From Minisyncoccota bacterium (lineage in GTDB: Bacteria > Patescibacteriota > Minisyncoccia > Phycocordibacterales > UBA6065), in assembly GCA_036400935.1 (NCBI GenBank), contig DASWWW010000001.1, positions 118,375-182,374 on the forward strand: 64,000 bases of DNA, written 5' to 3'. Positions within the stretch are counted from its first letter, which is position 1. Every line of letters begins with the position of its first letter. Shown here piece after piece: positions 1,678-40,993 of the stretch. Below the pieces are notes generated by a model. It made no database searches. It saw only the letters and a program-made list of their open reading frames with translations, and had not been told where the DNA came from. A program made the translations under genes and the position numbers.

Positions 1678-4524
1678 ATGTCAAAGAAGATCGTAGTCGG
1701 CCTTGTAGCAGCATTGTTCATTTTCGGAGCTTCATTCGGTACGGTACGTGCGCAGGAGGCCCAGTCGGGCATCAGCTTCGCTCAGCTCATCGAGCTTCTC
1801 ATCGGCTCGGGCTTGATCGCGCCTGAGAGGGCAGCGAATGCCCGCGCCATGATCTCATCCCAGCCTTTGCCCGTAGGATACGTCGCGTCTCCTGCCTATG
1901 CCACGACGACTATCGGCACCTCGACCGTCGCTACTTCGACCGGCCCTATGGTCGACCTCAAGGTCAGCGGTCTCGACAGCGTAAGCGTAAACAACCGAAC
2001 TACCGTCCGGGTATCTTGGACATCGACCGGCACCCGATCGTGTAATGCAAGCGGATCCTTGCTTTCTATCGCGAACGGGGGACAGTGGGGCTACAACGGC
2101 CTCCTCGGAACTTCGGGCAGCGAGCTGCTCGTCGCGGCGACCTCGGGCTCGCTCCCTTCGACAGTGATCGTAGGCATCCAGTGTTTCACTAATACGGGAA
2201 GCTCCGTTAGCGACAGCGTGCCCGTGACAATTACCGCTTCTGGCAATCTTACGACCGGCACTACCTCGGTCGCGAGCAATCCTTTCGTCGTAACATATCC
2301 GACGAGCGCAAATACTCTTTACATCGGGCCGACTCACACCGTCGTCTTCCGCGGCGGCGACTCCGACGTCCGCAGCTATTCCGTGTATCTCGTCGGCGGC
2401 GCCCTTGGGTCTACCGGTTCACGGTACCTCGGCACCGCATATCCCCAGACGCCTGGAGGAGCTGGAACCTTTGCGATCGTCATTCCTTCGGACATTCAGC
2501 CGGGCAATGGTTATCAGATCCAATTCAGCGGCGCTCGAGCTTCGGGAGGAAACAGCGCCTCATTCGGAATCGTTCGTCCTCCTCAGAATACTATCGCCTC
2601 GAGCACGATCTGGGACATAAATAATCGCGCGGCATCCGGCGTTCAGATCGCTGACGGCACAATCTCAGCAAATATCGCGGGCGCATCTACCATTCAGGTA
2701 AATGCGGGAGACAGCATGACGACCCTCGCAAGGATAAATATCTCTGCGGCAGGATCGGACGTGAGCATCCAGAGAATCAAGATGAATCTCGGATCGGTTT
2801 CTCCTTACAACAAGGTATTCAAGACCATATACTTCACCGATTCGAACGGAACGGTTCTCGCACAGGCGGACATAAACGCGAACACTGTTCCATTAGACGG
2901 CGGAAGCTATACATTGAACCTCGGAGGCTTCAGCAAGAACGTCTCAAGGAATACGACCCATACTTTCAACATAAAGGCGGATATCTATTCTTCTATTCCG
3001 TCGGCCAATCAGGGATACCAGACCATCTCTGTCGGTGCGAGCGGCATTCGAGGAATGGACGCTTCGGGAATAGACCGATACGCTCCCGCATCAGGTATAA
3101 GCCAGACGCTCAACGTCATCGGCGCTCCGATCTCGCCGGTTAGCCTTGTGAACGGCATCACTTATTCGTCTGTTCCTTCATCGGTCGTAGCCGGCTCGAC
3201 ATTCAATGTCACGATCGCGAACTCGGGGACAAAGCAGTGGGGAGCATGGCACGATATCGCGATCTCGGCTAACGACCTCTCCTTCAATACCCAGATGGTC
3301 ACGCTCAGCAGCACTCCTGTCGGATCGTCTAAGACAGTTACCTTCACCGCGCCTACGACTCCGGGTACCTACAAGATCCGCGCGGTAGAGCAGGGCGTCG
3401 AGTGGTTCGGCGGAACTCGATCCTTTACAGTCACCTCGTCGAATACTCAGACTCAGTCTCGACCGATCTCAGGATCTCTCTCGGTCGCATCTACTTGCGT
3501 TGTTCCCGGAGCAAGCTTCAACGTGCAGGGATCGGTTGCGGGCGACGGAGTGAATTCCGTAGTCCTTGAAAAGGACAGCAACCAGGACGGCGTCTTTGGT
3601 ACGGCTGCTACATGGGGATCGACAGGGGGCTCTTTCAATTCTAACGAAGGCGGTTCATACAGCGGGCGCCTCGATTTCAGGCTCGTGGTGAACGGCACTG
3701 TCAGGGATTCAAAGAGTGTCACCGTCTCGACTGCCTGCGGACCGCAGACTCAGCAGTACAGCCAGTCGTGCGCCGGCACCCAGCCTTCAGGCGAGGGAGT
3801 GGTAAAGGGATACTCTTCATACACTTCAGGCTATGGCACCACCAATTGGACATTCGTCTCGGCTAACCCTCAGGCCTGCCAGTGGTCATGTGCGAGCGGA
3901 TACGGCGTGACGGGCAATACCTGCCAGCCGACTACCCAGACTTCGCAGCCTGCTCAGATCACCTATCAGGCATGTTCGGGAACTGAGCCTTCAGGATCAA
4001 ACGTAACAAAGGGCGGCGGCATGTACTCGACCGGCTACGGCACTACAAACTGGACCTACGTCTCTAGCAACCCTCAGGCCTGCCAGTTCACATGTTCGGG
4101 CGGCGCGACATGGAACGGAGCGGCTTGCGTACTGCCAACCCCTACGGTCTCTTTGACCGCGGATACGAGCTGCGCGGTTCCGGGCTCGACCATTACCGTC
4201 ACAAGCTACGTGACCGGTTCGCCAATCACATCTAACTATATAGAGAGGGATACCCCTGCGGAGAATTCCCAGTACGGAGATGGTATATTCGGCGGAAAGG
4301 CTGACTACGGTACTTCGGGAGGCTCTCACAGCTACTCTCAGACTACCGAAAGGGAGGGCTACTACGACTTCAAGGCCGTTGTGAACAACAGCATCACGTC
4401 ATCGGTTCGCGTCTACGCCTCGCAGTCTTGCGGACAGTCATCGGCGGCGCCGGCCATGACTAACCTCGGATCGGCTATTGTAGGCTTTGATTCTCTGGTA
4501 AGGCTCCTTGAATTATTAAAATAA
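1678..4524 (+). CDS. large secreted cell-surface protein (948 aa); Ser/Thr/Gly-rich with several internal Cys-bounded repeats
   Basis: It has a signal peptide and a conserved post-signal module (SFAQLIELLIGSGLIAPERAANARAMI) shared with the 6418 protein. It carries two roughly 90 aa repeats (CVVPGASFNV...LEKDSNQDGVFG...CGP and CAVPGSTITV...CGQ) that are homologous to repeats in 38231..39589, and two roughly 55 aa repeats (CAGTQPSGEG...YGTTNWTFVS.NPQACQW.C). Confidence 0.75.
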   Translation: MSKKIVVGLVAALFIFGASFGTVRAQEAQSGISFAQLIELLIGSGLIAPERAANARAMISSQPLPVGYVASPAYATTTIGTSTVATSTGPMVDLKVSGLDSVSVNNRTTVRVSWTSTGTRSCNASGSLLSIANGGQWGYNGLLGTSGSELLVAATSGSLPSTVIVGIQCFTNTGSSVSDSVPVTITASGNLTTGTTSVASNPFVVTYPTSANTLYIGPTHTVVFRGGDSDVRSYSVYLVGGALGSTGSRYLGTAYPQTPGGAGTFAIVIPSDIQPGNGYQIQFSGARASGGNSASFGIVRPPQNTIASSTIWDINNRAASGVQIADGTISANIAGASTIQVNAGDSMTTLARINISAAGSDVSIQRIKMNLGSVSPYNKVFKTIYFTDSNGTVLAQADINANTVPLDGGSYTLNLGGFSKNVSRNTTHTFNIKADIYSSIPSANQGYQTISVGASGIRGMDASGIDRYAPASGISQTLNVIGAPISPVSLVNGITYSSVPSSVVAGSTFNVTIANSGTKQWGAWHDIAISANDLSFNTQMVTLSSTPVGSSKTVTFTAPTTPGTYKIRAVEQGVEWFGGTRSFTVTSSNTQTQSRPISGSLSVASTCVVPGASFNVQGSVAGDGVNSVVLEKDSNQDGVFGTAATWGSTGGSFNSNEGGSYSGRLDFRLVVNGTVRDSKSVTVSTACGPQTQQYSQSCAGTQPSGEGVVKGYSSYTSGYGTTNWTFVSANPQACQWSCASGYGVTGNTCQPTTQTSQPAQITYQACSGTEPSGSNVTKGGGMYSTGYGTTNWTYVSSNPQACQFTCSGGATWNGAACVLPTPTVSLTADTSCAVPGSTITVTSYVTGSPITSNYIERDTPAENSQYGDGIFGGKADYGTSGGSHSYSQTTEREGYYDFKAVVNNSITSSVRVYASQSCGQSSAAPAMTNLGSAIVGFDSLVRLLELLK

Positions 4525-4539
4525 GGAGCGTATAGAGCA

Positions 4540-4576
4540 GGAAATGCCGCGGGCGCGTAGCGCCCGCGGCATTTCC
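4540..4576 (+). terminator. long perfect hairpin (GGAAATGCCGCGGGCGC / GCGCCCGCGGCATTTCC)
   Basis: A 17 bp inverted repeat lies immediately after the stop at 4524. The T-tract is weak, so it may act as a stabiliser or terminator. Confidence 0.5.
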
Positions 4577-4578
4577 GT

Positions 4579-4606
4579 TTGACTTTGGTTTCCGCTCTGC
4601 TATTAT
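4579..4606 (+). promoter_or_regulatory. sigma70-like promoter TTGACT-16-TATTAT upstream of tuf
   Basis: It is a consensus-like hexamer pair. A roughly 140 nt 5' UTR then leads to an AGGAGG RBS at about 4726. Confidence 0.5.
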
Positions 4607-4744
4607 ACGGTGTACGCATTTTGCGACCTTTTTCATTACCTTTGTAAGTTATTGAAAGAGTTTAAAAGCTTAGAACATTAATTTTTAAGCACCCTGGATT
4701 TGCAACCATCTCGCGCGCAGATCTAGGAGGCTTACCAAAACGTT

Positions 4745-5938
4745 ATGGCAGAATTTGCACGAACAAAGCCTCACGTAAACGTAGGAACCATCGGTCACGT
4801 CGACCACGGAAAGACTACGCTTACTACGGCTATTCTCGCGACTCAGGCTCGCGACGGTCTCGCAGTAGGTAAGGCATACGCCGACATTGCAAAGGGAGGT
4901 ACGGTCCGCGACGCATCTAAGGTCGTTACCATCTCTCTCGCGCACGTAGAGTACGAGTCAAACACTCGACACTACGCTCACATCGACGCCCCTGGTCACG
5001 CCGACTACATTAAGAACATGATTACCGGTGCCGCTCAGATGGACGGCGCTATCCTCGTGGTATCTGCGATTGACGGCCCAATGCCACAGACTCGAGAGCA
5101 TATCCTCCTCGCAAAGCAGGTTGGAGTGCCAAAGATCGTGGTTTTCCTCAACAAGTGCGACGCGGTAGAGGACAAGGATCTCATCGACCTCGTTGAGGGC
5201 GAAGTCCGAGACCTCCTCACCAAGTACGGCTACGACGGCGCAAACACTCCAGTTATCCGCGGATCGGCCCTCAAGGCCCTCGAAGCGGCTAACAACACCG
5301 ACGAGTGGGCAATGAAGGTCAAGGACCTCATGAACACTCTCGACTCTTACATCCCTATGCCAGAGCGAGCTACGGACAAGCCTTTCCTTATGCCTATCGA
5401 GGACATCTTCTCGATCGAAGGACGAGGAACCGTGGTTACGGGACGAATCGAGCGAGGACAGATCAAGGTCGGTGAGGAAGTCGAGATCATCGGTATCAAC
5501 CCGACATCAAAGACAACCATCACTGGTATCGAAATGTTCAACAAGCAGCTCCAGTCCGGTATGGCAGGAGACAACGCAGGACTCCTCCTCCGAGGTACTG
5601 CAAAGGACGCGGTTACTCGCGGACAGGTTCTCGCAAAGGCGGGATCTGTTACTCCTCACACAGAGTTCGAGGCTGAGGTTCTCATCCTCAAGAAGGAAGA
5701 GGGAGGCCGACATACCCCATTCTTCAACGGCTACAAGCCACAGTTCTACGTTCGAACTACGGACGTTACTGGTGAGGTAACCCTCGCCCCTGGAGTAGAG
5801 ATGGTTATGCCTGGAGATACCGTTACCTTCAAGGTAAAGCTCCACGCTCCTATCGCCCTTGAGGACAAGCAGCGCTTCGCTATCCGAGAAGGAGGCAAGA
5901 CTGTCGGAGCAGGCGTCGTAACCAAGATCATCGCGTAA
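4745..5938 (+). CDS. tuf: elongation factor Tu
   Basis: It has the [11 protein letters not shown]-loop, DCPGHADY and NKCD motifs over its full length, and an AGGAGG RBS. Confidence 0.97.
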
Positions 5939-5981
5939 AAGCTTGCTAAATCGGACAAAATAAGTAGACTGAACATTATAT

Positions 5982-6350
5982 ATGGCAGAAGCAACAACAA
6001 AGAAGAAAGTAGTGAAGGCAAAGGCAGCTCCAAAGGCTGATGCGTCTCCACGACTTCGCATCCGTGTCCGAGCGTACGAGAGCAAGATTCTCGACGCTTC
6101 GGTCAAGCAGATCATAGACACGGCTCTCCGCTATGATGTCCAGGTTCTCGGTCCGGTACCGCTCCCTACGGAGATCAAGAAATATACGGTGAACCGCTCG
6201 TCGTTCGTGTATAAAAATGCGCGAGAGCAGTTTGAGATGCGAGTGCACAAGCGCCTCATCGATATCTTGAATCCTAACGCAAAGATCATCGAAGCCCTTA
6301 CGAATATGTCATTGCCATCAGGCGTGAACATCGACGTAAAGATGATTTAA
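5982..6350 (+). CDS. rpsJ: 30S ribosomal protein S10 with a Lys/Ala-rich N-terminal extension
   Basis: The S10 core (RIRVRAYESKILD...) is present. Confidence 0.93.
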   Translation: MAEATTKKKVVKAKAAPKADASPRLRIRVRAYESKILDASVKQIIDTALRYDVQVLGPVPLPTEIKKYTVNRSSFVYKNAREQFEMRVHKRLIDILNPNAKIIEALTNMSLPSGVNIDVKMI

Positions 6351-6354
6351 GAAA

Positions 6355-6390
6355 AAGCAAAAGCCCGCCGCAAGGCGGGCTTTTGCTTTT
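6355..6390 (+). terminator. rho-independent terminator after rpsJ
   Basis: The hairpin GCAAAAGCCCGCC-GCAA-GGCGGGCTTTTGC is followed by a T-run. Confidence 0.7.
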
Positions 6391-6417
6391 GGCGGATACT
6401 CGGCGTATGCTTGCCTT

Positions 6418-8004
6418 ATGACTAAGAAAATCATCGTCTCGGCCCTTTTCGCAGCCGTACTCTTGGGCGGAGTCCAGAGAGCGGAAGCAATGTCTTTCTC
6501 GGAGCTTATTGAGTTTCTTATAAACGCCGGAATTATAGCGCAGAATAAGGCTGCCGAAGCTCGCGCGGCCATAGCCGTAGGCACGGGTCAGCAGTCGAAC
6601 TGCCATATGTTCAATTCGAACTTTGGGGTAGGGTCGGGCGGGCCGGACGTAGCCGCCTTGGGCAAGATCCTTGCCAAGGAGGGGCTGCGTAGCGTTGCTG
6701 GCAATTCCTATGATGAGGAAATGGCCGCTTCAGTCGTGAGCTTTCAGGCGCGCTACGGCATACCATCGACAGGATATGTTGGTCCGCTTACTAGGGCGCA
6801 TCTCAATCAGGTGTCGTGCTCGCCTGCGTCGAGCTCGAAATCTGCGCCAGCGGCCAGTTCGATCCCTGCTTCTGTTCCAGCAAAGCCGGCGGCCACTATC
6901 ATTTCCGCTCCGGTCGTGCTCGCGCCCGCGCCGGGCAGCGTTTGGGACGTAAACGGGAACTATACCGTCAAAATCCAGTTTCCATCGCAAGAATCGGGAA
7001 AAGTCGCGAAGCTTGGCCTAAGCATTTGCCCCGCAACATTTGGCAGCTGTTACATTTTGGAATCGTATGACTCGAGGCTGCCTCTCGGTCAGAATCCCAT
7101 AGCCGAAGTCCCATGGTCCTCGATCAGGGAAATGAATACGAGCATTGCTCCTGGAAAGTACAAGCTTGCCGTCGTCGTGAACGATTCCGATCACTACAAC
7201 AACATATCGGTTGATGGCGGGGAATTCACCGTGACCGGCAGCTTTACACGGCAGGCTTCGCAACAGCCGCAGCCTTCTGGTGACTCGAGCTCGATGGCAC
7301 AGGACTGGTCGGCAACGTCGTTTGTTGGATACTCTCTCGTGAGGGACCTTTCGATTGGTTCTTTGGGGCGCGACGTCGCAATCCTCCAGGATTTTCTTTG
7401 GACAAAATCTTTCTTGCAGATGAGTTCCGGCGTCGTGCACGGCTCTTTTGATCAGGCTACGGCCGATGCGCTTTCCAGGTACCAGGTTTCTGTTGGACTC
7501 TCAGCAAGCGGTTCCGTAGGATCTCTTACGAGGGCGTCTCTCAATACGGCTTTTACATCACAGGCCCCCAATTCTGTTGCCGTTCCCGCTTCAAATCCAG
7601 CAAGCAGTCCGATGCCGCAGGTGTCATGTCCTCAGTCCGTGAGTCTCCCGGGATTTACGCTCACCCTTGAGCCGTGTGAGATTGTTAATGCTTCCTTGAC
7701 CGACGAGCAAGGGGATTTGAAGTTCAAGGTAAGGATCACCGCGAGCGATCCGGGCGCTTCTTTTTCCTTCTATGCATCCTATGCCTCAACTGTCGGTTTT
7801 CCGCCCTATTCGGTTTTGATGGGATCGGGCGCCACTGTGGGCGGCGCAGAATTCGACCTGACTTTCGTTGAAGGTATGCTTTCGGCTAACGGATCTGAGC
7901 CGCGAACATATAGCGGCTATTTGCCAATAACCGTCCTCGATCCCAAGGAGAACAAAGCTTATCTTTATATGAGGCTCAACCTTACGGTAAATCCTGCGAA
8001 CTAG
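6418..8004 (+). CDS. secreted protein with two PG_binding_1 (peptidoglycan-binding) domains, inserted between rpsJ and rplC
   Basis: It has a signal peptide and a conserved N-terminal module (SFSELIEFLINAGIIAQNKAAEARAAI). It also has PG-binding-like segments (GPDVAALGKILAKEGL...GYVGPLTRAHL and GRDVAILQDFLW...VGSLTRASL). Confidence 0.75.
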   Translation: MTKKIIVSALFAAVLLGGVQRAEAMSFSELIEFLINAGIIAQNKAAEARAAIAVGTGQQSNCHMFNSNFGVGSGGPDVAALGKILAKEGLRSVAGNSYDEEMAASVVSFQARYGIPSTGYVGPLTRAHLNQVSCSPASSSKSAPAASSIPASVPAKPAATIISAPVVLAPAPGSVWDVNGNYTVKIQFPSQESGKVAKLGLSICPATFGSCYILESYDSRLPLGQNPIAEVPWSSIREMNTSIAPGKYKLAVVVNDSDHYNNISVDGGEFTVTGSFTRQASQQPQPSGDSSSMAQDWSATSFVGYSLVRDLSIGSLGRDVAILQDFLWTKSFLQMSSGVVHGSFDQATADALSRYQVSVGLSASGSVGSLTRASLNTAFTSQAPNSVAVPASNPASSPMPQVSCPQSVSLPGFTLTLEPCEIVNASLTDEQGDLKFKVRITASDPGASFSFYASYASTVGFPPYSVLMGSGATVGGAEFDLTFVEGMLSANGSEPRTYSGYLPITVLDPKENKAYLYMRLNLTVNPAN

Positions 8005-8010
8005 TTTGAG

Positions 8011-8040
8011 AAAGCCGCCCGCAAGAGCGGCTTTTTCTTT
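8011..8040 (+). terminator. rho-independent terminator
   Basis: The hairpin AAAGCCGCCCGCAAGAGCGGCTTTTT follows the stop. Confidence 0.7.
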
Positions 8041-8066
8041 GACAAATGCTGCTAGAAGAGTAGTCT
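8039..8066 (+). promoter_or_regulatory. promoter-like TTGACA-16-TAGTCT
   Basis: It lies upstream of the ATG at 8079. Confidence 0.35.
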
Positions 8067-8078
8067 ACATACCGGCAC

Positions 8079-8447
8079 ATGAAGCAAAAAATAGCGGTCA
8101 TTGACTACCAATTGGGTCGGCTCGAGCCTCTGCGCCAGCTGCTCGCAGGCGCTGGGTATGAGGTGCTCCCGATCCTTATCGAGGAGGGAACGTACTACGA
8201 ATCGATAAATAAGGTAAAGGTGTTCGGTCCGGATCTTATCCTGACGGTGCATGTCCTCGGTATCGACGGCGTGAACGGCAGCCACGTATCGCGTGCGCTC
8301 GACTTGCCCAAAACCAGGCTCGTGGGCACTGACGAAAGCAAGGTGGCACAGCCGTACTGCGCGGCACGGTTCGATATCAAGGGCGTGCACGCTTCGGACA
8401 GTTCCAAGCGCAAGTTCATAGCCTTCATCAAAGCGGCCCTCTCCTAA
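8079..8447 (+). CDS. small CheY-like pseudo-receiver domain protein that lacks the phospho-acceptor Asp
   Basis: It has a receiver-like beta-alpha pattern (KIAVIDYQ...GPDLILTVHVLGIDG...LVGTDES...K). The position aligned with CheY D57 is Val, and the acidic pair is DY instead of DD. A terminator hairpin at 8433..8464 overlaps the stop. Confidence 0.5.
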   Translation: MKQKIAVIDYQLGRLEPLRQLLAGAGYEVLPILIEEGTYYESINKVKVFGPDLILTVHVLGIDGVNGSHVSRALDLPKTRLVGTDESKVAQPYCAARFDIKGVHASDSSKRKFIAFIKAALS

Positions 8448-8473
8448 AGGGGCCGCTTTTTTCTTGCCGAATC

Positions 8474-8502
8474 TTGCATAATCCGCCCTTTTGAGGTAAT
8501 AT
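8474..8502 (+). promoter_or_regulatory. sigma70-like promoter TTGCAT-17-TAATAT followed by a roughly 90 nt leader upstream of rplC
   Basis: Hexamers and spacing are consensus-like. The leader may be an r-protein autoregulatory target. Confidence 0.5.
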
Positions 8503-8592
8503 CTTTGCCACTGAAGCAAGGGGCTTCTGGTCAGTTTTAATAGGTCAGTTAAGAGAGCCTACGGAGTCTCATACTCCGCGCTCGTCCAAACA

Positions 8593-9219
8593 ATGAAGAA
8601 ATTCATCCTCGGCACGAAAAAGGCTATGACTCAGGTCTTCGACGCTGACGGTATCGCATATCCTGCGACCGTCCTGTCGGCAGGTCCTGTCGTCGTAACC
8701 CAGGTTAAGACGGTAGAGAATGACGGTTATGCTGCTCTTCAGGTAGGTTTCGGCCTCCAGAAGGAACAGCGCCTTACAAAGGCGGTAAAGGGCCACGTAA
8801 AGCAGCTCGGATTCTTCCGACACATCGCGGAGTTCTGCGTTGATGCGGCAGAGGTTGCAAAGGCAAAGGTAGGCGACAAGATCGACCTCAGCACTTTCGC
8901 TGCGGGCGACCTCGTTACTGTCCGATCGCAGGCAAAAGGAAAGGGCTTCCAGGGTGCCGTCAAGCGACATCACTTCGGTGGAGGACGCCGATCTCACGGT
9001 CAGAAGCACTCTGAGCGAGAAGTTGGTTCTATCAACGGCGGAGGCCGCGTAGGATCTGGACGCGTCGCAAAGGGCAAGCGAATGCCAGGACGCATGGGAA
9101 ATGACATGGTCACTGTAAAGAATCTCAAGGTTCTCCAGGTTCGCCCTGAGTCGAACGAGATCGTTATCCACGGATCCCTTCCTGGTCGAAAGGGCGTACT
9201 CGTATCTATCGTTGCGTAA
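8593..9219 (+). CDS. rplC: 50S ribosomal protein L3
   Basis: L3 homology runs the full length. Confidence 0.93.
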   Translation: MKKFILGTKKAMTQVFDADGIAYPATVLSAGPVVVTQVKTVENDGYAALQVGFGLQKEQRLTKAVKGHVKQLGFFRHIAEFCVDAAEVAKAKVGDKIDLSTFAAGDLVTVRSQAKGKGFQGAVKRHHFGGGRRSHGQKHSEREVGSINGGGRVGSGRVAKGKRMPGRMGNDMVTVKNLKVLQVRPESNEIVIHGSLPGRKGVLVSIVA

Positions 9220-23830: not shown

Positions 23831-24751
23831 TCAGCGGTTCTGGATCACGTACAGCTCTGCGAGGGCGTTGCCGTTCCCGTTGTCTTCGATAAAGACGTCG
23901 CGCCGAGTCGGACCTTTGACGGTAACGGGCGCGACTAACGCGGAATCCATCGAGTTGGCAGGGAATCGGAATGCGCCGACCTGATCGAATGTGGCCCAGG
24001 TCGCATTGCCCGTGCTCCAGCCCGAGTTCCGACCGAGGACGACTGTCCCTGTAGGAGTCTTCTCGAGGAGGAGGAGTCGCGGATTCGCCATGACGTTGGT
24101 AACGCCGAATGCCGCAAGCGAAGGCCCTGCGGCTCGCACTAGGAGGTTCCGCACGCCGTCGCCCGCGAATATGACTCCGAGGATGATCGGTGAGCCTGTC
24201 GAGCCGGCCAATCGGATCGAGGCATTGAATATCTCGCTTCCGACGTTCCGATTCTGGCCCCGCTGGTATGACAGGTCATAGACCTCTACCTGGCATACGC
24301 CCGCTGGCGTATTGCCTTTGGGCTTCGCCGTTATGGTGTATGCGCCGGGCGGGAGGTCCAGCACGACTGCGGCATCCTTGCCTCCGGCCGCGATAGCGTA
24401 AGCCCCTGCTTGCAGCATGGCCAGCTTGTTCGCGTCCGTCGCGGCCCAATCGTCATTTCTGGCGATCTCGCGGCTTTCGCTGTTGTAGACGGCGAGCTCG
24501 GGGTCGGGCATAGTGCCTGGGACTCCGAACGTAGGGTCAGCCAATGTCGGCCCGACTACGCGGATGACCACGGTCTTTACCCGCGGCCCGCCGATGACGA
24601 ACCCCGCGTGAAGCTCGTTCGCCGACGTACCTGACGCGAATGCTCGCACCGAGAAGTTTATGAGCTGAGGAATATCCGTAGCACCAGATGCCGCATTGGC
24701 ACCGAAGAAGGCGATCGCGAGGACTGCCTTGAGGGGACTGAATTTATTCAT
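23831..24751 (-). CDS. secreted protein with two PPC-like 'NDDW' beta-sandwich repeats
   Basis: It has a signal peptide. Two copies of the motif LINFSVRAF....GFVIGGPRVKTVVIRVVGPTL..FGV...DPELAVY....IARNDDW are paralogous to 1..426 and 629..1438. Confidence 0.7.
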   Translation of the reverse strand: MNKFSPLKAVLAIAFFGANAASGATDIPQLINFSVRAFASGTSANELHAGFVIGGPRVKTVVIRVVGPTLADPTFGVPGTMPDPELAVYNSESREIARNDDWAATDANKLAMLQAGAYAIAAGGKDAAVVLDLPPGAYTITAKPKGNTPAGVCQVEVYDLSYQRGQNRNVGSEIFNASIRLAGSTGSPIILGVIFAGDGVRNLLVRAAGPSLAAFGVTNVMANPRLLLLEKTPTGTVVLGRNSGWSTGNATWATFDQVGAFRFPANSMDSALVAPVTVKGPTRRDVFIEDNGNGNALAELYVIQNR

Positions 24752-38230: not shown

Positions 38231-39589
38231 ATGAAAAAGACCCTGCCTTTGATCGGTTTGTGCTCGCTCACGTTGGTTGCCGGAATGACTTTCTTTACGA
38301 GCGGCGACCCTGCGTCCGCAGCTATCGAGACCTGCGATGCTGGTTCCGACATGAGCTATCACCAGGCCAAGGAGGCTATGGCGAGCGGGGAGCTTTCCCT
38401 GACGTATAATCCCGATACGTCGGCAAACAGGGTAACGGTAAACATTCAGAACAACACTCCGTGCTCAGTGCCACTCAGCCTCAGCACCTATAGGATGTTC
38501 GGACCATACGATCCGGCCACCCAGTCCCAGCAGCAGTTCTATGCCGGCACGGGCGTTTTCAACGTAGCGGCAAACTCGGGAGCGACATTGGAGGCTGACA
38601 TTCCAACTTGCGCCGCTCAGTACGACGTATGGTATGGATCAGCCCCTCAGGTCATCCCTGACAACGAGGTCTATGGCAGCATCATGTTCGGCGATCATGT
38701 CCGACAGGATCAGTACTGCCAGCTTCCCCCAGCGACTCCGGTGACCGCGACCCTTTCGGCGAATGCGTCTTGCATCGTCCCTGGCGCGACCGTCCAATTC
38801 ACGGCTAATTTCGCGGGAGGCTCGATCGGCTCAAAGACCCTCGAGAAGGATACCAATGCCGATGGGGCATACGGCGAGGTTGCGTCATGGGGACCTGGGC
38901 CTGGAACTCATGTGTATACCGAGGTTACTGATGCGAACTATTCGGGAATCTATTCTGCTCGACTGATGGCGGACGGCACCGAGATCGTGCGGACGAATGT
39001 CACGGTTGACGCGTCGTGCGCGCCGGTCGTGCCGCCTCCCGTAGTCCCTCCGCCGGTCGCAGCTCCTATCACGGCGAACCTCGCTCCTGAATCCGTCTGC
39101 ATTGTCCCTGGCGCTGTCGTATCGTTCACCGCGAATGTGAATGGGGACGGCATCTCGTCGAAGACTTTGGAGAAGGATACCAATGCTGATGGGTCATTCG
39201 GCGAAGTCGTAGCCTGGGGAGCGGGTGCGGGCACTCATACATATACCGAGGGTCTCGACGCAAGCTACACGGGCGTCTACACCGCACGCCTCATGGTCAA
39301 CGGCAATGAGATGTCTCGCCAGAATGTGACAGTAGATACGGCCTGCGGACCGGCTGTAGTCGTTCCGCCTCCAGTAGTACCTCCGCCGCCAGTCGTCCCA
39401 CCTCCTGTCGTCCCTCCGCCAGAGCCGCCGATCGTCCCTACCAATACGGGAGACGGCCCGATCACTCCTCGCGGAGGCGGCAGCGGACGCAGCGGAGGAC
39501 GAAGCACTCCAGTTCAGCCGGTGGTCATAACTACAACTGATTTCGTTCCGGGCCTTCCTGATACCGGACTTCCTCCACGAAGGCGCTAA
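38231..39589 (+). CDS. secreted surface protein with two homologous Cys-bounded repeats, Pro-rich (PPPVVPPP) linkers and a C-terminal LPDTG motif that lacks a hydrophobic anchor
   Basis: It has a signal peptide. Two roughly 95 aa repeats (C.VPGA.V.FTAN..G..I.SKTLEKDTNADG.[FY]GEV..WG.G.GTH.YTE..DA.Y.G.Y.ARLM..G.E..R.NVTVD..C.P) match repeats in 1678..4524. The protein ends ...FVPGLPDTGLPPRRR. Confidence 0.75.
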   Translation: MKKTLPLIGLCSLTLVAGMTFFTSGDPASAAIETCDAGSDMSYHQAKEAMASGELSLTYNPDTSANRVTVNIQNNTPCSVPLSLSTYRMFGPYDPATQSQQQFYAGTGVFNVAANSGATLEADIPTCAAQYDVWYGSAPQVIPDNEVYGSIMFGDHVRQDQYCQLPPATPVTATLSANASCIVPGATVQFTANFAGGSIGSKTLEKDTNADGAYGEVASWGPGPGTHVYTEVTDANYSGIYSARLMADGTEIVRTNVTVDASCAPVVPPPVVPPPVAAPITANLAPESVCIVPGAVVSFTANVNGDGISSKTLEKDTNADGSFGEVVAWGAGAGTHTYTEGLDASYTGVYTARLMVNGNEMSRQNVTVDTACGPAVVVPPPVVPPPPVVPPPVVPPPEPPIVPTNTGDGPITPRGGGSGRSGGRSTPVQPVVITTTDFVPGLPDTGLPPRRR

Positions 39590-39600
39590 TATCACCTCCT

Positions 39601-40200
39601 ATGTCCAAGCTCTCATTAGGCGCTCTCATAGCTTTCATTATCCTGTGCGCCTTGTCGCCGATCGCCCTCTTCTTTATCGTGCCTCGCGCCAATGTCGAGG
39701 CGCGGGCCGCGACTGCGGTGACGGCGGCTATCGAAAAGCCGGCAGAGGAGATCGTGCGCGCCGAGCTTCCGTCCCGCATCCGCATCCCGCGATTGGGCAT
39801 CAATGCGCACCTCGAGCATGTCGGCATAAAGGCTGATGGCTCGCTCGACGCGCCAAAGGATCCGTTCAATGCGGCGTGGTTTGCCGGCGGCCCTCGCCCT
39901 GGCGAGATCGGCAGCGCCGTCATCGACGGCCATTACGGATGGATAGACGACGTGCCTGCGGTTTTCGACAACCTCAACTCGATCGTGAAAGGGGACAGGA
40001 TATACGTCATTGACGTCACGGGCTCGACTACGGCTTTCACGGTGACGGAAGTCCGCGTATTCGATAAGGATGCCGACGCCACGTCTGTATTCGTATCGAA
40101 TGACGGCAAAGCCCGCCTCAACCTGATTACCTGCGAGGGGGCGTGGAACGAGACGACTCAGAAGTACTCCGGACGGCTCGTAGTTTTCGCCGAAAAATAA
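39601..40200 (+). CDS. sortase (membrane-anchored transpeptidase)
   Basis: It has an N-terminal TM anchor, a catalytic His (VIDGHYG), a TLxTC-type Cys (NLITCEG) and a downstream Arg. Confidence 0.85.
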   Translation: MSKLSLGALIAFIILCALSPIALFFIVPRANVEARAATAVTAAIEKPAEEIVRAELPSRIRIPRLGINAHLEHVGIKADGSLDAPKDPFNAAWFAGGPRPGEIGSAVIDGHYGWIDDVPAVFDNLNSIVKGDRIYVIDVTGSTTAFTVTEVRVFDKDADATSVFVSNDGKARLNLITCEGAWNETTQKYSGRLVVFAEK

Positions 40201-40201
40201 T

Positions 40202-40993
40202 ATGTTCATCATTCCATTCTCAATGCCTATGTTCCCGCCGACCGAGCAGATAGCCTACTCGGAGATCCGCTCGCCATCGAGCGTGCCTCAGGGCTTGCCT
40301 GTGCGGCTGAAGATTCCCGATATCGGCGTCGATTCCTTGATCGAGGATGCTCTCGTTACTTCCGACGGACGCATGGATGTTCCTGCGGGATCAAAGAATG
40401 TCGCGTGGTACGCCCTTGGCCCAAAGCCGGGCGAAGTGGGGAGCGCCGTCATCGGCGGCCACTACGGCATCAGCAACGGCGTGAAATTCGTTTTCTATGA
40501 TCTCGACAAGCTCACTATCGGCGATATCGTGCAGGTCGTCGACGATAAGGGCGACATTCTGACATTCAAAGTCAGGGCAGTAAAATTGTACAAGCGCGAC
40601 GCCGACGCCACTGAGGTATTCACCTCGCGTGATGGCCTGGCGCACCTCAACGTGATTACCTGCGAGGGCGCATGGAATCAGAAGAACGGCACGTACGACG
40701 ACCGCCGCGTGGTATTTACCGACCTCGTGACCGAGGGCAAGGTAGCGGGCGCCGCAACCTCGAAGGCTGAGGTGTTTCCGCGAGAGCTGTCGCTCGGTAT
40801 GAGTGGATCGGACGTCGCGGCCCTCCAGCTTATCCTCGAGAACAAGGGTTTCCTGAAGATTCCGCCGGGCACGAAAAAAGGCTACTTCGGCGTGATGACC
40901 AAAGCAGCCCTTGTGACGTATCAGAGGATCGCGAGCCTGCCGGCGACCGGCTATTTCGGCCCGCTGACCAAGTCCAAGATGCTCGGACTCTAG
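40202..40993 (+). CDS. sortase-domain protein fused to a C-terminal PG_binding_1 domain; no N-terminal TM segment
   Basis: The sortase core (VIGGHYG...NVITCEG) is paralogous to 39601..40200. The C-terminal region (LSLGMSGSDVAALQLILENKGFL...GYFGPLTKSKM) is peptidoglycan-binding-like. Confidence 0.75.
   Translation: MFIIPFSMPMFPPTEQIAYSEIRSPSSVPQGLPVRLKIPDIGVDSLIEDALVTSDGRMDVPAGSKNVAWYALGPKPGEVGSAVIGGHYGISNGVKFVFYDLDKLTIGDIVQVVDDKGDILTFKVRAVKLYKRDADATEVFTSRDGLAHLNVITCEGAWNQKNGTYDDRRVVFTDLVTEGKVAGAATSKAEVFPRELSLGMSGSDVAALQLILENKGFLKIPPGTKKGYFGVMTKAALVTYQRIASLPATGYFGPLTKSKMLGL

Follow-up and report, generated by a model that had tools for sequence, protein, structure and literature searches.

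A stretch of 64,000 nucleotides from the genome of a Minisyncoccota bacterium (GenBank assembly GCA_036400935.1, contig DASWWW010000001.1, positions 118,375 to 182,374 of the forward strand; hereafter referred to as the window) encodes two secreted proteins, of 948 and 528 residues, that share a conserved stretch of about 30 residues next to their signal peptides. The larger protein, labelled by NCBI as a hypothetical protein of a Candidatus Paceibacterota metagenome-assembled genome (MAG), consists of a signal peptide, the shared stretch, immunoglobulin (Ig)-like domains, two Cys-containing repeats of 68 residues and a conserved C-terminal tail. The smaller protein, labelled as a peptidoglycan-binding domain-containing protein, consists of a signal peptide, the shared stretch, a PG_binding_1 domain, a beta-rich region, a second PG_binding_1 domain and another beta-rich region. 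An original prediction, made from the DNA alone, had drawn attention to the pair; both N-termini are found in the window exactly as quoted there, and its description of one protein as a Cys-repeat protein and of the other as a peptidoglycan-binding protein was borne out by the 68-residue repeats and the two PG_binding_1 domains.

Conservation between the two window proteins

The two copies of the shared stretch are identical at 16 of 30 residues. A BLASTP comparison of the full-length proteins yielded this N-terminal match alone (E 5e-6), with all other segments at E values of 1 or higher, in agreement with the original view of a conserved unit common to otherwise unrelated secreted proteins. 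The ungapped BLOSUM62 score of the pair was 76, where the next best of 17,115 windows from the proteins of the 64 kb scored 21, and a six-frame scan with a hidden Markov model (HMM) found exactly two copies in the 64 kb, namely those of the 948- and 528-residue proteins.

At the level of the DNA the likeness is much reduced. The same codon is used at only 4 of the 16 identical residues, the nucleotide identity of the pair is 56%, and an exact DNA seed of at least 10 nt that would link the two regions was not found. Since 16 residues have been kept together with only four codons, the conservation is old and at the level of the protein, and selection has acted on the protein. The missing DNA repeat and the diverged codons exclude both a recent duplication and a cassette for recombination or phase variation. 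Concerted evolution of the copies within one genome was rejected as well, as the pair ranks at the 59th percentile of all pairs.

A family of extracytoplasmic modules

A profile made from the two sequences was compared to 1.84 billion representative proteins and gave 23 hits at E <1e-3, 21 of which are real and two of which are ankyrin false positives. When one genome of each GTDB species was scanned with a DNA pattern blind to position, 31 loci were confirmed, all of them labelled as Patescibacteria, Parcubacteria, Paceibacterota, Taylorbacteria, Kaiserbacteria, 'uncultured Saccharibacteria' or unclassified bacterial MAGs, and a search with N-termini comprising the stretch plus PG_binding_1 added 19 further carriers. 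(Below, P-numbers denote carriers from the protein searches and L-numbers denote genome loci.) In total, 79 distinct sequences of 28 residues were gathered, with a median pairwise identity of 50%, and a family profile was built from 26 instances (alignment A3). Both window copies conform to the family: they are about 30 residues long, match the profile and are preceded by a Sec signal peptide, and AlphaFold2 predicts a helix-turn-helix (modelled for the copy of the 528-residue protein). The shared stretch is, in each protein, one copy of an autonomous domain of some 30 residues, to which we will refer as the module.

The domain family is previously undescribed, being absent from Pfam, NCBIfam and the PDB. 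Neither Pfam nor NCBIfam has a model over the module stretch, and PDB sequence searches with both module profiles returned chance matches only. A word-indexed homolog search with the 60 N-terminal residues of the 528-residue protein gave no match, whereas the same kind of search with the module profile gave just 2 hits, the method being too insensitive for a query of 30 residues. No match was obtained either when metagenomes were scanned with the module subtype of the 948-residue protein, and no module was found in the viral contigs scanned. The family seems to be confined to extracytoplasmic proteins of the Patescibacteria (Candidate Phyla Radiation, CPR), chiefly of the Paceibacterota/Parcubacteria.

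The occurrence across the Patescibacteria disposes of the possibility that the stretch is confined to the two window proteins. Indeed, it recurs in dozens of other surface proteins of this group and in a positional ortholog of the 948-residue protein. The gene for this ortholog, P0014, lies in the corresponding ribosomal gene cluster of another MAG (L035), upstream of tuf; the protein retains the module and the C-terminal third, while the middle of the protein has been reshuffled.

Predicted fold and conserved residues

Counted from the mature N-terminus, the consensus of the module reads [VIML]1-[TS]-L-[SA]-[QE]-L-[VI]-[ED]8-L-[FL]-I-x-h-G14-[IV]-I-x-P18-[DE]-K20-A-x-x-A-R25-A. The segments are a first helix at about residues 3-12, a turn at G-h-I-x-P and an Ala-rich second helix at about residues 18-31. 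Members of a large subfamily (FIALEVIP) have E or D in place of the first Gly.

The N-terminus of the 528-residue protein (residues 23-139) was modelled with AlphaFold2 using an alignment of 18 rows (model m4b5c427030bb; mean predicted local distance difference test score, pLDDT, of 79). In the model a helix (model residues 5-14) is followed by a five-residue turn, a helix at 20-33, a linker with pLDDT <50 and the three helices of PG_binding_1; in the numbering of the protein the two predicted helices of the module occupy residues 27-36 and 42-55. Moreover, for a natural array of four modules in P0005, four helix-turn-helix units were predicted without an alignment (pLDDT 77, predicted TM-score, pTM, of 0.49). 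According to these models the module is a helix-turn-helix hairpin and not, as originally thought, one amphipathic helix. The amphipathicity itself was found in part, as helix 1 is moderately amphipathic; the picture of a single helix was wrong. Fold searches with the module returned no specific analogue.

Seven modules of four proteins (P0004, P0006, P0008 and P0022) carry a Cys at both positions 4 and 30, which are adjacent ends in an antiparallel hairpin. This bracket would fit a disulfide that staples the ends of the hairpin in an oxidising, extracytoplasmic compartment. Because the two Cys residues sit at the ends of the hairpin, the boundaries of the domain can be put at about +1 and +30.

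Helix 1 has a mean hydrophobicity of 0.6-0.77 and a moderate hydrophobic moment, and is rich in large aliphatics on more than one face; of the first 16 residues of the module, 9 are large aliphatics. The only conserved polar residues are E/D8, K20 and R25, and no aromatic/polar patch of the type seen in glycan binders is conserved among the module copies.

Cleavage register and domain architectures

The position of the module relative to the signal peptide was analysed in 54 distinct N-terminal copies, anchored on the core L-[VI]-[ED]-L-[FL]-I. These are preceded by leaders with an n-region and a hydrophobic core of about 20 residues. Position -3 is Ala in 47 of the 54, and an equal number (47/54) have A, G or S at position -1; the conserved residue +1 (V, I, M or L) comes right after the cleavage site. 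In most carriers signal peptidase I is thus predicted to cut before residue 1, which makes the module the mature N-terminus, and the original placement of the unit directly at the signal-peptidase site held. The 528-residue protein is a clear case, as its predicted cleavage between AEA and M abuts the module; in the 948-residue protein the best, canonical site lies between VRA and Q, after residue 25, and leaves up to 6 residues (QEAQSG) ahead of the module. The register persists across distinct architectures: Ig-like/Cys-repeat proteins with a conserved tail at the C-terminus (the 948-residue protein, P0011, P0013 and P0014), a dockerin/EF-hand protein (P0021), a PKD protein (P0016) and short peptidoglycan-binding proteins (P0017, P0019).

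In all, the module occurs in at least 10 architectures, with PG_binding_1, PKD, Kre9_KNH Ig-like and dockerin/EF-hand domains among its partners. PG_binding_1 is the commonest neighbour, often after a short flexible linker, and it links most carriers in a single-linkage clustering. The module is by no means restricted to the N-terminus. P0005 and P0015, which belong to one orthologous family, carry the module four to six or more times in a row; Cys-bracketed pairs occur downstream of PG_binding_1 in P0006 and P0008; and copies at the extreme C-terminus are present in L019, P0003, P0004, P0005 and P0015. P0130 and P0131 have an N-terminal transmembrane helix and a long charged segment, probably a coiled coil judging from its sequence, with the module at the end. 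The carriers are not all large, as some measure only 144-270 residues.

At least six other proteins of the window with a signal peptide lack the module. The module is therefore a portable folded domain, and neither a general feature of exported proteins nor an extension of the signal peptide; the latter option, raised at the outset, is refuted by the tandem, internal and C-terminal copies. The signals known as ESPR or YSIRK-type were rejected for a similar reason: they lie inside the signal peptide, within its hydrophobic core or N-terminal to it, and are cleaved off together with it, whereas the module is C-terminal to the A-x-A site and occurs in internal, tandem and C-terminal positions as well.

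The features of the two window proteins are listed in Table 1.

Table 1. Location of the two genes, their signal peptides, module copies and associated features in the window.
Feature	Position	Strand	Basis
Gene, 948-residue secreted protein	1678..4524	+	Open reading frame; weak Kre9_KNH and CARDB Ig-like matches
Signal peptide region of the 948-residue protein, residues 1-31	1678..1770	+	Sequence reading; register versus 54 N-terminal copies
Module copy 1, residues 32-61, ISFAQLIELLIGSGLIAPERAANARAMISS	1771..1860	+	45.8 bits versus iterated profile
Extreme C-terminal tail of the 948-residue protein, ...MTNLGSAIVGFDSLVRLLELLK-COOH	4426..4521	+	Tail alignment and HMM; DNA pattern match 4462-4524
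Gene, 528-residue secreted protein	6418..8004	+	Open reading frame; Pfam; between S10 and L3 ribosomal protein genes
Signal peptide of the 528-residue protein, residues 1-24	6418..6489	+	Sequence; fixed A-x-A register
Module copy 2, residues 25-54, MSFSELIEFLINAGIIAQNKAAEARAAIAV	6490..6579	+	49.9 bits versus iterated profile; AlphaFold2
First PG_binding_1 domain of the 528-residue protein, residues 75-129	6640..6804	+	Pfam E 1.4e-16; three-helix model

Conserved C-terminal tail and repeats of the carriers

The extreme C-terminus of the 948-residue protein is conserved in seven other module-bearing proteins (P0011, P0013, P0014, P0021, P0022, P0003 and L030:3722-7588), with the consensus ...SSNLGSAxVG[FYI][DE]x[LV][IV][KR]LLxxL[KR]-COOH, and the N-terminal module is present in every tail-bearing protein seen. 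The tail is probably an amphipathic helix with a basic residue at its end. It contains no LPXTG motif and no transmembrane segment and has no match in Pfam or NCBIfam, and a metagenome scan with the tail as a degenerate DNA pattern gave no match. The tail could be a C-terminal anchoring or pairing signal.

The two copies of the Cys-containing 68-residue unit of the 948-residue protein (3763-4103; C..T.PSG...KG...Y..GYGTTNWT.V...PQACQ..C..G) have diverged, with 76% DNA identity over 80 nt, and the unit is found in P0011, P0013 and P0014 as well. P0014 and P0021 share another repeat, HSADT[ND]KDWKISDSEL.RVI.LYNYR, which in P0021 matches Dockerin_1/EF-hand (PF00404, E 9e-8); the pattern suggests Ca-binding units within the same family of surface proteins.

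Gene neighbourhoods

A conserved Paceibacteria locus accounts for 25 of the 31 genome loci (L003-L031, e.g. L012:76-5794). It consists of ftsK on the opposite (minus) strand, a gene for a protein of 250-400 residues, whose C-terminal end is winged-helix-like by eye, and the gene for a module protein of 630-1290 residues with the order signal peptide, module, PG_binding_1 and beta-rich region. The neighbourhood of P0130 revealed no partner gene and its neighbours are unrelated.

The conserved str/S10 ribosomal cluster is interrupted by genes for large secreted proteins in the window (1678-9219) as well as in L035 (8001-14436). The insertion upstream of tuf has been kept in the related MAG L035; the slot between S10 and L3 holds ORF6N and HlyIII genes there instead.

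Other features of the window

One of the signal-peptide proteins without the module is a sortase substrate of 452 residues that ends in ...LPDTGLPPRRR, i.e. in a sortase motif plus six residues, with no hydrophobic segment. In the region 38231-40993 its gene is directly followed by two sortase genes, the second of which is fused to a C-terminal PG_binding_1 domain. Two other secreted proteins (25-426, and 23831-24751 on the minus strand) share the segment FVI.G...K.V.IR.VGP.L and neither matches Pfam; they resemble a family of paralogs that lacks annotation. ARAGORN identified a minus-strand transfer-messenger RNA (tmRNA) at 45857-46248, with the tag peptide AKSSVSPFFGAKDFSFAYAIA, and a tRNA-Ile with anticodon TAT (UAU) at 49245-49319, an anticodon that is uncommon in bacteria.

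Proposed role of the module

We propose, tentatively and with a probability of about 0.42, that the module is a non-covalent docking or retention unit that ties diverse secreted proteins to a common partner in the cell envelope; both the function and the partner are what we infer from residues and context. The hairpin alone would not be able to bury the broad aliphatic face of helix 1. Because nine large aliphatics occur in the first 16 residues whereas helix 2 is rich in Ala, the module would have to pack against something else, and the hairpin may thus dock non-covalently onto a common envelope partner. As the conserved set consists of aliphatics, one acid and two bases, and not of the aromatic and polar residues of glycan binders, the indicated partner is a protein, or possibly a lipid. 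The likeliest one would be another module-bearing protein or a receptor, for which candidates are the membrane-anchored, putative coiled-coil proteins with a module at their end. Secreted proteins that are otherwise unrelated would in this way be kept and arranged at the cell surface. The context is that of a docking unit: the module is found at protein termini, usually beside a wall-binding domain, it has been amplified in tandem, and it caps membrane-anchored stalks. Docking or anchoring, as suggested in the original prediction, is therefore plausible; as to targeting, named in the same breath, the module is not a signal that depends on position, because its position is not obligatory.

Several points weigh against such a docking role. 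No dedicated partner gene, for which the original prediction had suggested a check, was found: the only recurrent neighbours are ftsK and the gene for the 250-400-residue protein, and these flank a single orthologous family. The 25 loci that they define are orthologs of one locus, and the positional statistics are not independent samples. Most hits from outside the genome scan carry no taxonomy. Module pairs from within one genome are no more alike than random pairs, and hence there is no co-evolution signal for homotypic pairing. Finally, the tandem amplification and the constant company of PG_binding_1 are equally typical of wall modules that bind a ligand with low affinity.

That last point leads to the main alternative, which we consider rather unlikely, that the module directly binds an envelope ligand and not a protein, in the form of a wall polymer or of the cytoplasmic membrane (outer leaflet). 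After cleavage, helix 1 would be embedded in the plane of the membrane, K20 and R25 would touch the phosphates of the lipid or polymer, and PG_binding_1 would grip the wall just above. In favour of this are the mature N-terminus that is freed exactly at the membrane surface, the PG_binding_1 domain that is usually adjacent and a helix 1 that is highly hydrophobic with a moderate hydrophobic moment, and the amplification in P0005 and P0015 resembles the tuning of avidity in LysM, CW_7 and choline-binding repeats. However, an acidic residue (E/D8) is conserved in the middle of helix 1, aromatic and polar residues of the glycan-binding type are not conserved, and the AlphaFold2 model is a compact soluble hairpin. 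Moreover, the membrane of their own cell would be hard to reach for copies at the far end of a coiled-coil stalk of about 120 residues (P0130) or at the C-terminal ends of large proteins.

A more ambitious proposal, which we regard as improbable, would make the module the universal connector of a surface assembly specific to the Patescibacteria. The N-terminal hairpin of one protein and the C-terminal helix of the next (...NLGSAxVGFDSLVKLLxxL[KR]-COOH) might form a three-helix bundle and so give head-to-tail polymers; alternatively, all module proteins might plug into the membrane-anchored coiled-coil stalks that end in a module, or, as a variant, a pilin-like mature N-terminus might dock onto type IV pili. 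If true, the system would build a surface layer or fibres that are used by episymbionts for contact with the host.

Could the module do without any binding role, as a small structural cap or spacer at the start of many secreted proteins, spread by domain shuffling? The outcome of the fold searches, which gave no specific analogue, would be in line with that, but we attach little credence to it: the sequence is strongly conserved across deeply diverged proteins and genomes (median identity of 50% over 28 residues), the conservation includes exposed aliphatics, and the module was amplified in tandem and was retained in the positional ortholog P0014 despite the reshuffled middle of that protein.

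Less credible still is a sorting or processing tag, in which a dedicated peptidase, secretion step or maturation enzyme would read residues +1 to about +8, in analogy with the SipW-dependent processing of TasA/TapA or with sortase-type sorting signals. The fixed register from A-x-[AGS] to residue 1 in 47/54 N-terminal copies, and the presence of the module on only a subset of the secretome, would fit such a tag. Yet internal, tandem and C-terminal copies keep the whole of +1 to +30 without a preceding cleavage site, the Cys4-Cys30 bracket is the mark of a folded domain, the module genes have no recurrent peptidase or secretion gene beside them, and in the 948-residue protein the best cleavage is 6 residues upstream of the module.

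Very improbable, lastly, is an origin from, or mimicry of, the type IV pilin alpha1 helix, by which Sec-exported, adhesin-like proteins would dock onto pili or the pilus machinery. Counted from the cleavage site, the residues do follow a pilin-like pattern, and one study describes the type IV pili of Patescibacteria as well conserved (PMC11623550). However, profile alignment and pilin models do not connect the two (see below), and a Sec-type leader with a hydrophobic core implies cleavage on the outside of the membrane. Only a minority of copies have Gly at -1 or Glu at +5, E/D8 breaks the hydrophobic run, which stops at +17, and the predicted structure is a hairpin and not a long continuous helix.

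Significance

The Patescibacteria comprise a large share of bacterial diversity and live attached to other cells, and their surface biology is almost unknown. The module marks a defined subset of their secretome, including the widely conserved protein of 630-1290 residues encoded beside ftsK. Its profile allows candidates for surface, adhesin or S-layer proteins to be retrieved at little cost from thousands of MAGs; it also provides a testable handle on the retention of surface proteins in the envelope and fills a missing entry in the domain databases. The finding does not overturn any principle.

According to a metatranscriptome study (PMC10936435), the secreted genes with the highest expression in Paceibacteria include some for proteins with peptidoglycan-binding domains, and the ftsK-linked proteins of 630-1290 residues may be the same family.

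Comparison with known systems

A close functional parallel is with the SLH domain (PF00395), a terminal unit as well, based on helix-loop-helix, which in many surface proteins of unrelated kinds comes right after the signal peptide. SLH domains serve in non-covalent attachment to the envelope, and the role proposed for the module is alike. There is even a local resemblance in helix 1, where the pattern h-I-x-x-L-h-x-x-G-h-I is found. On the other hand, an SLH motif has about 55 residues, against about 30 for the module, and SLH motifs act as a trio, three in tandem making up one pseudo-trimeric domain; most carriers have a single copy, and the arrays, of 2 to 7, show no preference for three. 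The conserved Trp, the G-x-x-DG-x-F-x-P loop and the TRAE motif that binds the pyruvylated wall polymer are all absent from the module. Homology to SLH was rejected accordingly: there was no Pfam hit to the two window proteins (E up to 1) or to 10 further module proteins (E up to 0.1), and an hhalign comparison of A3 with the SLH motifs of PDB entries 3pyw and 8bz2 gave a probability of 4.1% over 12 columns.

PG_binding_1 (PF01471) is comparable in being small, all-helical and wall-associated. It is, however, a three-helix bundle where the module has two helices, and the module occurs in proteins that lack PG_binding_1, for instance in the 948-residue protein. The two cannot be equated in the 528-residue protein, as the Pfam match is limited to residues 75-129 and a linker of low confidence lies in between. 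The model of that first PG_binding_1 matches the N-terminal domain of SleB (6tci) and other peptidoglycan-binding domains; the Foldseek matches (SleB, CtpB and endolysin peptidoglycan-binding domains) mostly span about 63-85 of the 117 model columns, which fits the three-helix part alone.

With the type IV pilin alpha1 helix (N_methyl, PF07963/TIGR02532) the module has in common a short hydrophobic helix at the mature N-terminus. The patterns can be written side by side, x-[TS]-L-x-[QE]5-L-h...G14-h-h...P...A-R-A for the module and F-T-L-I-E5-L-M...G14-I-L...P22...A-R-A for the pilins in the PDB. The class III leader of pilins is nevertheless short and basic, without a hydrophobic core, and ends in Gly (-1), followed by Phe or Met (+1), whereas the leader of the module proteins is of the Sec type with A-x-A; among the 54 N-terminal copies -1 is Gly in 12, +1 is never F, and at +5 there are 29 with Q and 22 with E. 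The alpha1-N segment of pilins is, moreover, an uninterrupted hydrophobic run of at least 20 residues, while that of the module covers about 16, is broken by E/D8 and turns polar from +18. The tandem, internal and C-terminal copies of the module are a further difference. Homology was rejected, with an hhalign probability of 3.9% in a different register and no hit to pilin models of Pfam or NCBIfam. A relation to the helix-hairpin-helix (HhH) motif, h-x-x-h-x-G-h-G-x-x-x-A, was judged by inspection and rejected too, since the second Gly is missing, the first one gives way to E or D in the FIALEVIP subfamily, and there is no Pfam hit to the HHH family.

Finally, dockerin-cohesin pairs, CWB2, LysM and CW_7 represent small portable modules, terminal and sometimes in tandem, that tether diverse catalytic or adhesive proteins to the wall or to a common scaffold. 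The module could not be linked to dockerin, CWB2, LysM or CW_7 by any match in sequence or structure. It lacks the Ca-binding EF-hand loops of dockerins, and its size and fold are unlike those of LysM (beta-alpha-alpha-beta) or CW_7 (three helices, about 42 residues). As a docking unit the module would be the counterpart of the SLH, CWB2 or dockerin modules of other bacteria; the role of a terminal docking or anchoring module would thus be a familiar one, whereas the domain itself is new.

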